Assembly (NCBI GenBank): GCA_028717245.1
Contig: JAQUOD010000001.1
Coordinates: 230,586 to 294,585, forward strand
Length of the DNA stretch: 64,000 nt
Direction of reading: 5' to 3'
Source: Candidatus Omnitrophota bacterium
GTDB taxonomy: Bacteria; Omnitrophota; Gorgyraeia; Gygaellales; Profunditerraquicolaceae
A program made the position numbers. Positions 38,501 through 41,500 of the stretch are shown piece by piece (position 1 is the first letter of the stretch; each line of letters starts with the position of its first letter).

Positions 38501-41500
38501 GCCTTTTCAACTCTCTTAAATGAACTGTTTTGATCACAACATCTTCGTAATGCCTTTTTTATAATAACTTCTCTCCGGCGGAAATCTTATGGCCCTTAAT
38601 AAAATCCTGCGTCTCCATTATTTTTCTGCCTTCTATTTGCAACTCTCTAATTATTAAATCATCTCTTCCCGTTACCACAGCTATGCCTTCTTTAGAGACC
38701 TCTGTTATCTCTCCTGACACTTTGACACTTTGACACTTTGACACTTTGACAACGTCTGCCTGATAAATCTTTAATAATTTACCTTTATAATATGTAAAAG
38801 CGCCCGGCCAGGGGAGGCACCCTTTGATAAGATTATGGATATCCTCAGCGGGCTTACCCCAGTCTATTTTACCGTCTTCTTTTTTGAGTTTCGGCGCAAA
38901 AGTTACGTTATCCTTATCCTGGGGGGCCAATTTATAATTATTATTTTCAACGGATTCAAGGCAGGTTAAGAGCAGTTCCGCTGCCAACTTAGACAATTTA
39001 TTTTCTAAGGTAACAGCCGTATCATCTTCAGCGATACCTATCTTTTTCTGCATGATTACAGGGCCGGCATCCATTTCCCTTACCATCTTTATAACGGTGA
39101 TACCCGTGGTTTTATCGGCATTGATTATCGACCAATTAATAGGCGCTGCCCCCCTATACTTCGGTAGAATTGAGGCATGGACATTTATGGCTAGGATTTT
39201 CGGGATAGCTAAGACATTTTCGGATAATATCTGGCCGTAGGCTATGACCACAAATAAATCCGGTTCTAGGCCTTTTAACAAACCTAATGCCTGCGCTGTA
39301 TTAATCCGTTCGGGCTGATATATGTCCAGGCCGGATTCTCTAGCTACGGCCTTAACTTGCGTAGCGCCCATAGCCAGCCCCCGGCCCTTCTTTTTGTCGG
39401 GCTGCGTGACTACACAGCTAATCCGGTGCTTCGAACTTAACAGGGCCTTTAATGAGGCCACTGCAAAATGAGAACTTCCAAAAAATATAATATTCATTAA
39501 AGTTAGAAGCCTTATTTTTTAGCTTTAAGCTATAAGCTTTAAGTATTAAGCTTACGGCTTATGGCTTACAACTTACGGCTTATTAAAACGGGTCCATGTC
39601 TATAGTTACTATTATACCTGAATGTGAAAAATTTTTTAAGTGTAATTTTAGATATTTAACCATTCTTACGGGAGAACTCCCTTTTGCCAATATCTGCCAA
39701 TAAAAATTTCCGCGCAATTTTGCGGGTTCCCCCGGATTGACCGAGACGAAATTTAGAGCCCTGTTATTTTTACCGGATTTACTCAATCTGTTAAACAAAT
39801 CGCCGGTTATTTCTTTAACCCTTTCCTCATTTTTGCCTCTTAACTTTAGCAAACATAAATGCCGATAGGGCGGAAAACCCAGCTGTTTCCTTTGTCCTAA
39901 CTCCTCTTCATAAAATATATCCATGTTATTGCTTTCTAACGCCCGCAAGCAATAATGTTTAGGCAACCTTGTCTGTATCAATAATCTCTTTCCGGCCAAA
40001 CCCAAAATCTTTGTTAATAAGGCAAGGGTTTTTTCGGTTGAGCGAAAATCAACGCGGTTTAAGGAATTATCTATGGAAAGCACGCCAATAAGGTCGAAAT
40101 TATATTCCTTTTTTTTAAGTATCACGGCTGTAGAAATAAAAATATCTGCGTCCTGCATATCTATGTCTTTAAGGTTATCTATCCTTTTAATTCTTGCCTG
40201 GGGAAAAAGGCGGCATAATTCGCTTTCTATTTTTTCCGTGCCTATACCCGAATAACGTATGTATCCGGCGTTACAGTTAGGGCAGATCTTTTGAGGGAGC
40301 ATCTTAAAATTACAATAACGGCAGCCCAGCATATTATCTTTAAAATAATATACCAGGTTAACATTGCAGCGCGGGCACTTCAAGGCCGTGCCGCAATGGC
40401 GGCAGGAGGCAAAAGTAGCAAAACCCCGTCGGTTGAGGAACAAGAGAATTTTACCTTTTTCGCCAAGCGCCTGCACTATGCAATCCTGCAAATACCTGGA
40501 TAATATTATTTCTCCGTGTTTAGATTTATATGGAAGGTTACGCATATCGATAATTTTTGTCTCGGGATAATTGTCCTGCCGGGTGAGAAAGGTATATTTT
40601 ATTTTTCCTTCCCTGGCTAAAAAAATGGTTTCTAAGGACGGTGAAGCAGAACCTAATATAAGCTTTGCCTTTTCGATATCTGTACGCATAAAAGCTAAGT
40701 CTCTTGCGTGATAATGCGGCACCTGGTCCTGCTTATAAACAGAGTCCCCCTCTTCATCTATAATCACTAACCCCAGGTTATTCACCGGGGCAAATACGGC
40801 AGAGCGCGTGCCGAGGATAACGCTGGAATCGCTATTCTTTGTTTTAACCCATTCTTCGGTCTCCTTAGGCTGCTTCCTGTATGATAACCCCGCAGAAATA
40901 CCCAGCAGCCGGGTAGTAATTATTTCTTTTGCCTCCAGGACCGATTCAACATCGGGCAATAAAACTATTGCCGATTCTTTATCTGTTAAAGCCTGCTTTA
41001 TCGCGTTCAGATAAACCTCCCACCTTAATCTCCCTCCTGGATCATGAAGCAGCATTACATCCTGACAACCGGACGGCTTACCTATATTCTTCTTTACTCT
41101 TATCTCCGGTATCTTTCTGCCCTTCCTTACCCCATCCGGCAGCGCTGTTTCAATGGCCTCTCCCCAGGAACAGCCGTAATAATCGGATAACTTACGGGCC
41201 AATAAAAGCATATTCTCACCCAACAATGGCGATTCATCGATTACATCCAAAAGCGGCTTTGTATTTTTGATAGATGTCGTAGGGCTAACTTTGACTACAT
41301 AGCCCAGCATCCTGCGGTTACGCAGTTCTACCCATACCCGCATACCCGGTTTTATTTTCTTAGAAAGGCTTAAGGGGATACTGTAATCGAATGGGCCGTC
41401 AATTGGCAGGCCTAAGACTACCTTGGCATATAGCATTACACAAATCCTTTACGGCATAAGGCCTTTTTTCCCGTCGGATATTTTCTTTTATGCTCTTTAA

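Follow-up and report, generated by a model that had tools for sequence, protein, structure and literature searches.

The PriA protein of Deinococcus radiodurans has neither ATPase nor helicase activity, and it binds single-stranded DNA (ssDNA; Kd ~215 nM), forks (~108 nM) and DnaB (PMC4504706). The condition is lineage-wide and conserved: Deinococcus-Thermus PriAs match motifs I and II poorly and carry an arginine in place of the Walker A lysine (Lopper et al. 2015, PMC4504706). In Escherichia coli, the priA300 allele (K230R) encodes a protein without ATPase or helicase activity; cells carrying it are close to wild type, and the protein assembles primosomes, as other ATPase-deficient PriA mutants do, and performs restart in vitro, for which it needs the PriB pathway (PMC5778457). 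A PriA without its motor can thus function. The main review of PriA names Deinococcus as the sole exception to the conservation of the helicase (PMC5778457). Here we analyse a priA gene in a 64-kb stretch of contig JAQUOD010000001.1 (positions 230,586 to 294,585, assembly GCA_028717245.1) from a Candidatus Omnitrophota bacterium, hereafter called the window. A reading of the sequence alone (the sequence-only reading) had predicted that its product is an ATPase- and helicase-dead PriA. A literature search found no published mention of PriA in Omnitrophota. Actinobacterial PriAs are flagged in UniProt as lacking helicase domains; the literature search found no such statement, and this is a lead only.

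Judged by its motifs, the Omnitrophota protein apparently represents a second natural helicase-dead lineage of PriA after Deinococcus, and an independent one. Deinococcus was the precedent named by the sequence-only reading, and it is the right one (PMC4504706). Both lineages have an arginine at the Walker A lysine and a degeneration that is conserved lineage-wide. Unlike in Deinococcus, the whole P-loop is gone beyond the K-to-R exchange, motif V is lost, as is motif VI, which carries a deletion, and the winged-helix (WH) domain is absent; the origin also seems independent. The E. coli K230R protein shares the exchange at the Walker A lysine, but there this was engineered as the only substitution, the motor being otherwise intact, and the mutant protein depends on PriB. 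The E. coli WH-deletion construct in structure 6dcr has the same parts, namely a 3' DNA-end binding domain (3'BD), two helicase lobes, a cysteine-rich region (CRR) plus a C-terminal domain (CTD), and likewise no WH; it is a laboratory construct with an active motor, whereas here the lack of WH is natural. The canonical PriAs of Omnitrophota (e.g. P0271 at locus L080 and P0369 at locus L081) share with our protein the phylum label, the genomic slot, ~34% identity and the 3'BD, CRR and CTD. They differ in having GVTGSGK[ST], DEEH, GTQMIAKG and GRAGRG, a length of ~675-690 amino acids (aa), and flanking genes for uracil-DNA glycosylase (UDG) and peptide deformylase (def).

A genuine PriA with degenerate motor motifs

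By sequence, domain content and predicted fold, the gene encodes a genuine PriA. The 617-aa protein scored 394.9 bits against the NCBIfam model TIGR00595 'replication restart helicase PriA' (cut-off 230.35) and stayed below all cut-offs of the narrower equivalog models PRK05580 and PRK14873. A phmmer search against all PDB sequences returned PriA chains only (4nl4, 6dgd, 6dcr, 8fak and 9zbu; E = 2e-75 to 1e-73), with E. coli and Klebsiella structures among them. The alignment to PriA, the 3' DNA-binding N-terminus, the zinc ribbons and the C-terminal domain, all seen in the sequence-only reading, were borne out by TIGR00595, Pfam and the phmmer search against PDB (Table 1); the Pfam match to Zn_ribbon_PriA spans aa 354-378. 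The Pfam DEAD helicase domain reached 19.1 bits, under its cut-off of 26 bits, and the Pfam scan of the protein gave no Helicase_C match, though one is listed for canonical sister proteins.

Residue-by-residue phmmer alignment to solved PriAs placed LLHDPGGRLRWEVYL opposite LLAGVTGSGKTEVYL at Walker A. HDPGGRLRW stands there in place of GxxGxGKT; the P-loop glycines and the GKT are gone, and R138 occupies the position of the Walker A lysine and W139 that of the threonine. ISTAVILK is found in motif V where the canonical protein has GTQMIAKG. In motif VI, GLAGK-----RLL faces GRAGRAGKQGEVV, with both arginines of GRAGRG gone and five residues deleted. Motifs Ia and Ib are likewise degenerate. 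The sequence-only reading had thus positioned Walker A (DPGGRLRW) and motif VI (GLAGK for GRAGR) correctly, to which the deletion in motif VI is now added, and alignment to the E. coli and Klebsiella structures, the check that it had proposed, ruled out a misalignment of the motifs.

Its further statement that all three substitutions remove residues essential for ATP hydrolysis needs refinement for motif II. The position of motif II was right (IIDEEGDS faces VIDEEHDS), but the Walker B acids D227-E228-E229 are kept and the histidine is the sole loss from DEEH. PriAs that are otherwise canonical, with GKT and GRAGR intact, can likewise read DEEQ or DEEP here. Because the catalytic acids are intact and such variants occur in canonical relatives, motif II is the weakest argument, and it is Walker A, motif V and motif VI that carry the case for motor loss. 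As read from the alignment, the degeneration is wider than first claimed and takes in motifs Ia, Ib and V, the motif VI deletion and the absent WH domain. We predict that the protein is ATPase- and helicase-dead.

In E. coli PriA the WH domain comprises residues 109-181, between the 3'BD and helicase lobe 1 (PMC5778457). In the phmmer alignment, query residues ~108-129 are aligned to E. coli residues ~124-221; this jump shows that the domain (~70 residues) is absent, and a short linker is found where it would be. The WH region of canonical Omnitrophota PriAs is reduced to ~50 residues with two predicted helices. The lack of WH in the degenerate PriA is natural and partly ancestral. A 113-aa plus-strand open reading frame (ORF) nested in priA (40929-41270) was assumed to be spurious.

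Residues lost and retained in the degenerate clade

To compare decay across the protein, 77 degenerate sequences were aligned with 71 canonical Omnitrophota PriAs. In the canonical sequences, 226 positions reach an invariance of at least 97%, and a position was scored as kept if at least 80% of the degenerate clade had the same residue. In motifs I, V and VI and at the histidine of motif II, 34 of the 36 canonically invariant positions were lost and 2 kept, against 91 lost and 99 kept among the 190 canonically invariant positions elsewhere (Fisher p = 6e-8 for the excess loss in the motor motifs). The residues assigned to ATP binding and hydrolysis are thus shown to be replaced clade-wide.

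Among the 77 degenerate members, 59 positions are invariant. F16, D17 and Y18 of the 3'-end pocket are invariant and K60 is conserved in at least 90%; the pocket residues of E. coli PriA are Asp17, Tyr18 and Lys61 (PMC5778457). Motifs Ic (GTRSxxFAP), IV (LNRxGFAT), IVa (GxGTE) and Va (DxxLxxxDFRSxE) are kept in the clade. So is the aromatic-rich loop (ARL) YKQxQxPHYxxR, which in E. coli PriA wedges into the fork junction (PMC10175261); E229, Y234, K235, Q236, Q238 and Y242 are invariant. All eight zinc cysteines (C345, C348, C354, C357, C372, C375, C385 and C388) are invariant in the 77 sequences. The CTD motif KLRGxxxWQ is also kept, with R575 invariant and K573, L574, G576 and W580 conserved in at least 90%. 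The comparison shows retention of the residues expected to bind DNA or to hold the fold: those of the 3'-end pocket, of motifs Ic, IV, IVa and Va, of the ARL, of the two zinc sites and of the CTD. A new pair, R138-W139, has appeared at the former K-T site, each residue being present in at least 90% of the clade.

Nei-Gojobori dN/dS was 0.10-0.19 in eight pairs of degenerate genes (73-90% amino-acid identity) and 0.02 in the single close canonical pair, in which dS was near saturation. The degenerate PriA is constrained, though probably less tightly than canonical PriA.

Distribution among Omnitrophota

The predicted loss of the motor is the conserved state of a large and diverse Omnitrophota clade and is not peculiar to one genome. 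A 100% identical protein has been deposited at NCBI for a Candidatus Omnitrophica metagenome-assembled genome (MAG), and an independent assembly from run SRR22315506 yielded the sequence as well. GKT is absent in 120/120 of the closest database homologs (53-67% identity, ~615 aa), which carry an Omnitrophica or Omnitrophota label wherever they are named. Their consensus is HDLxGxxRW[DE][IV]YL at motif I, mostly DEEQD at motif II and LTxEK at motif VI. A local sequencing error, which the sequence-only reading had named as a possible refutation, can be dismissed in view of the identical independent protein and the shared degeneration of all 120 homologs.

A species-level scan with one genome per GTDB species returned 80 loci, almost all with an Omnitrophota label. 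The degenerate form was found in 76 of these, at 35-66% identity to the query. The other four, with 32-34% identity, have the canonical GVTGSGK[TS], DEEH, GTQMIAKG and GRAGRG; they are L072, which is labelled Nitrospirota, L077 and two Omnitrophota loci, L079 and L080. An exhaustive HMMER search of 1.84 billion cluster representatives gave 22,486 relatives; ~100 of the best 150 of these (50%-identity clusters) were degenerate, with lengths of ~610-625 aa. Canonical PriAs are also plentiful among Omnitrophota-labelled proteins.

Several variants were observed beside the common form. The search of representatives included partly degenerate PriAs that keep some motifs (P0168, P0205, P0163, P0229, P0196 and P0198). 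P0168 has AQAKTEVYL, i.e. KT without the glycines; P0205 keeps GSGKT, yet has DDEQ in motif II and has lost GRAGR. The position of such forms inside the degenerate clade hints at a stepwise or repeated loss of the motor. Two close homologs have insertions of ~30-50 residues exactly in the degenerate motif V loop (aa ~445), consistent with a loop that is no longer constrained.

Two overlapping frames make up a split form of the degenerate priA in four Omnitrophota MAGs, each a species representative (Table 1). A ~109-aa 3'BD ORF closes at TGA, the linker is deleted, and a ~493-aa core can begin at a TTG within the overlap (ATTGATTGA, ATTGGTTGA or ATTGCCTGA); both halves are intact. Core-only proteins are present in databases, e.g. 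P0136 (493 aa). The split gene could encode a natural two-polypeptide PriA, or it could be read by a programmed +1 frameshift.

Gene neighbourhood and phylogeny

On the minus strand of the window, the gene order around priA is DegT aminotransferase, GT2 glycosyltransferase, epimerase, HAD phosphatase, monogalactosyldiacylglycerol (MGDG)-synthase-like glycosyltransferase, priA and fmt. The 3' end of the MGDG-synthase-like gene overlaps the start of priA by 38 nt. Beyond fmt follow a hexapeptide transferase gene on the plus strand, two GalT-like genes and GAPDH. The block of HAD, MGDG synthase, priA, fmt and GalT was found in essentially every degenerate locus of sufficient length, and fmt adjoins priA in degenerate loci wherever the contig reaches that far. 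The two tandem GalT-like paralogs downstream of fmt (35657-36664 and 36654-37679) belong to the HIT family (DUF4921/DUF4931); the copy at 36654-37679 is 75-87% identical across degenerate-priA loci, far above priA itself.

Canonical Omnitrophota priA (L079-L084) lies in the same block, with the order DegT, HAD, MGDG synthase, UDG, priA, def, fmt ... GAPDH, PGK; the canonical, unlabelled locus L077 has only the part with UDG, priA, def and fmt. By position, the degenerate gene is thus an ortholog of canonical priA, which argues that it is the ancestral priA itself and not an extra paralog. In all these canonical loci (L077 and L079-L084), UDG lies upstream of priA, and def downstream, before fmt. 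A tblastn search (E<1e-5) of the window and of the +-10 kb around each of the 76 degenerate loci detected neither UDG nor def. The predicted loss of the motor thus goes together with an operon from which UDG and def have been lost or relocated.

In a rough neighbour-joining (NJ) tree rooted with a canonical outgroup, all 100 degenerate or partly degenerate sequences formed one clade with zero fully canonical members, and its sister was the canonical Omnitrophota clade. Midpoint rooting had split the degenerate clade artificially, a split that the canonical outgroup root resolved. The sister relationship to canonical Omnitrophota PriAs, together with the shared synteny, points to a motor loss that arose within or next to Omnitrophota, probably independently of Deinococcus-Thermus.

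Predicted structure

An AlphaFold2 model of the 617-aa protein, built from the 77-sequence alignment, had a mean predicted local distance difference test score (pLDDT) of 87.7 and a predicted TM-score (pTM) of 0.86. The parts expected of a PriA are all predicted: the 3'BD, a pair of alpha/beta lobes, a beta-rich CRR and the CTD. At residues 111-120, the site of the missing WH domain, the pLDDT falls to 62 and no secondary structure is predicted. The top nine Foldseek matches in PDB were all PriA (TM 0.68-0.88), and the next family was Mfd (<=0.41).

The best match was the E. coli PriA chain of the complex with PriB and a fork (8fak_H; TMq 0.88, root-mean-square deviation (rmsd) 4.5), followed by the apo WH-deletion protein 6dcr_A (TMq 0.75, rmsd 8.7); 4nl4, an apo structure with ADP bound, also gave TMq 0.75. 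A control model of the canonical Omnitrophota PriA P0271 (pLDDT 83.6) fitted both conformations about equally (6dcr_A, TMq 0.80, rmsd 4.7; 8fak_H, TMq 0.78, rmsd 6.2). The 8fak structure was released in 2023, after the training data of AlphaFold2 had been fixed. We therefore hypothesize, from one model, that the degenerate protein prefers the fork- and PriB-bound conformation. In 8fak a pivot of the CRR by ~85 degrees creates an ssDNA pore and uncovers the partner-binding face (PMC10175261).

Because the model fits 8fak_H better than the apo structures and the canonical model has no preference, it is conceivable, though rather doubtful, that an Omnitrophota lineage of phylum scale has independently made a motor-less PriA that rests in the fork-engaged state, as a constitutively 'on', ATP-independent restart platform. 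If so, the CRR would be pivoted, the ssDNA pore formed and the partner-binding face exposed from the outset, a state that E. coli PriA reaches only after fork binding or ATP-driven unwinding. The change would then coincide with the loss of UDG and def and, in some lineages, with the split of 3'BD and core.

Proposed function and alternative explanations

We conclude, with a probability of about 80%, that the ORF is the orthologous priA with its superfamily II motor disabled and the remainder under purifying selection, i.e. a PriA pseudohelicase. The protein most likely serves, in the manner of Deinococcus PriA or E. coli PriA K230R, as an ATP-independent platform for fork recognition and helicase recruitment. 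An abandoned fork or D-loop would be recognized through the 3'BD, helicase lobe 1 and the CRR/CTD, with the 3' end in the 3'BD pocket and the ARL at the junction. The degenerate PriA would then bind the lagging-strand ssDNA and recruit the replicative helicase without ATP hydrolysis, directly or via a further partner. Binding of ssDNA and forks, and interaction with DnaB, would be consistent with the conservation of the 3'BD pocket, of the ARL and of motifs Ic, IV, IVa and Va. Recent work on E. coli indicates that its PriA can switch the CRR and be joined by PriB only once it has unwound a duplex lagging arm (PMC13594977), and a motor-less PriA would for this reason be limited to forks that already expose lagging-strand ssDNA. 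At forks with a duplex lagging arm, another helicase or a nuclease would be needed to expose it.

Several points weigh against this conclusion. The motor loss is predicted from sequence, and a non-canonical site could conceivably bind or hydrolyse ATP; D-E-E of Walker B is intact, and an arginine occupies the lysine position. The NJ tree is a rough one, in which long-branch attraction could make fast-evolving forms look more monophyletic than they are. The search for a second priA reached only the window and +-10 kb of the degenerate loci. Helicase-dead E. coli PriA depends on PriB (PMC5778457), and reports of PriB and PriC are confined to proteobacteria and a few further Gram-negative species.

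Were the protein a neofunctionalised paralog with a role outside restart, a canonical PriA elsewhere in the same genomes would restart replication. The abundance of canonical PriAs among Omnitrophota-labelled proteins fits such a duplication, as does the sister position of the degenerate clade, which an ancient duplication would also produce; the second-priA search, which covered the window and +-10 kb of the degenerate loci, leaves room for it. However, degenerate and canonical genes share the MGDG synthase/fmt slot in the same larger block, as predicted by lineage-specific divergence of one ortholog, and all seven canonical loci examined (7/7) were in this slot and none in another context. 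Neither the window nor the +-10 kb around any of the 76 degenerate loci contains a second PriA-like region. We regard a paralog as unlikely. Still less probable is that the protein remains an ATPase or helicase through a non-canonical nucleotide site, for example one formed by R138 and D227-E228-E229. The Walker B acids and the arginine at the Walker A lysine position are conserved, and two RecA-like lobes are confidently predicted, all of which would suit such a site; it would have to function with the P-loop glycines, the Ser/Thr after the lysine, motif V and both motif VI arginines replaced, and with motif VI five residues shorter. The subthreshold DEAD score also speaks against it, as does the lack of the Helicase_C match that is listed for the canonical sisters.

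The last alternative, that priA is decaying into a pseudogene or was misread through an assembly artefact, is essentially refuted. Some relaxation is indicated by dN/dS values above the 0.02 of the canonical pair, but they are far under 1, and dozens of species-level MAGs, assembled independently, carry the ORF intact and at full length. The invariant positions, including all eight zinc cysteines and the 3'-end pocket, and the newly conserved R-W pair at the old GKT site also contradict decay, as does the independent deposition of the identical protein. A pseudogene was accordingly ruled out by the intact ORFs in many species, the invariant residues and dN/dS, and a sequencing error or motif misalignment by the phmmer alignment to solved PriAs and the state shared by 120/120 homologs.

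If the PriA pseudohelicase is accepted, a second and much more diverse lineage would have discarded the motor more thoroughly than Deinococcus and kept the parts for fork recognition. This would strengthen the view that the essential, universal job of PriA is structure-specific recognition and helicase recruitment, not unwinding. The clade offers a natural, sequence-rich separation-of-function set, including naturally WH-less and split forms, and could serve to study how DnaB is recruited by PriA in bacteria without PriB, PriC and DnaT. Annotation pipelines name such proteins 'primosomal protein N'' or 'superfamily II helicase' and leave the likely loss of activity unflagged.

Table 1. Coordinates of priA, its encoded domains and motifs and its conserved neighbours in the window, and of split priA genes at other loci
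Feature	Position	Strand	Basis or remark
priA ortholog, predicted pseudohelicase form of replication restart protein PriA	39583..41436	-	intact ATG-started ORF, 617 aa
PriA_3primeBD, 3' DNA-end binding domain (aa 5-100)	41137..41424	-	Pfam PF17764, E=1.4e-25
Short linker (aa 101-125) where the WH domain would be	41062..41136	-	alignment and model
Degenerate motif I / Walker A (aa 128-143, MLLHDPGGRLRWEVYL)	41008..41055	-	alignment to LLAGVTGSGKTEVYL
Motif II DEEG and retained ARL, YKQDQVPHYHARD (aa 222-250)	40687..40773	-	
CRR (aa 345-388), eight Cys = two Zn sites	40273..40404	-	Pfam PF18319
Degenerate motif V (aa 432-448, IFISTAVILKKKEYNFD vs canonical ILIGTQMIAKGFDFPHV)	40093..40143	-	
Degenerate motif VI (aa 474-489, LTKILGLAGK-RLLIQT)	39970..40017	-	
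PriA_C, C-terminal domain (aa 523-616)	39589..39870	-	Pfam PF18074, E=5e-11
fmt (methionyl-tRNA formyltransferase), conserved downstream neighbour	38559..39497	-	Pfam Formyl_trans_N/C
MGDG-synthase-like glycosyltransferase, conserved upstream neighbour	41399..42541	-	Pfam PF06925
Split degenerate priA	L057:10001-11789; L063:10001-11789; L061:10001-11804; L062:7282-9085		

Surrounding genes in the window

No other replication or helicase gene was found in the 64-kb window. Genes for glycan and envelope biosynthesis, with many B12-binding radical SAM paralogs, follow one another there almost without a break on the minus strand. Across the window (1-64000), the minus strand carries 53/54 ORFs of at least 150 aa, and each 2-kb bin has a negative GC skew; the window as a whole is co-oriented on a single replichore. 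Five ORFs of the glycan cluster had no Pfam match at E<=1e-5: 50789-52834 (681 aa), 56708-58507 (599 aa), 6793-8145 (450 aa), 8153-9934 (593 aa) and 529-1581 (350 aa).

At least eight B12-binding radical SAM paralogs are present (2824-4302, 5369-6820, 18802-20331, 20324-21739, 22437-23903, 23904-25301, 26408-27826 and 60051-61469), along with two further radical SAM genes (11879-13186 and 25309-26406), one of them with a SPASM domain. They are interspersed with glycosyltransferases, epimerases and a Wzx-like flippase in one very long co-directional cluster of the polysaccharide/lipopolysaccharide type, suggesting that the glycans are heavily modified, e.g. methylated.

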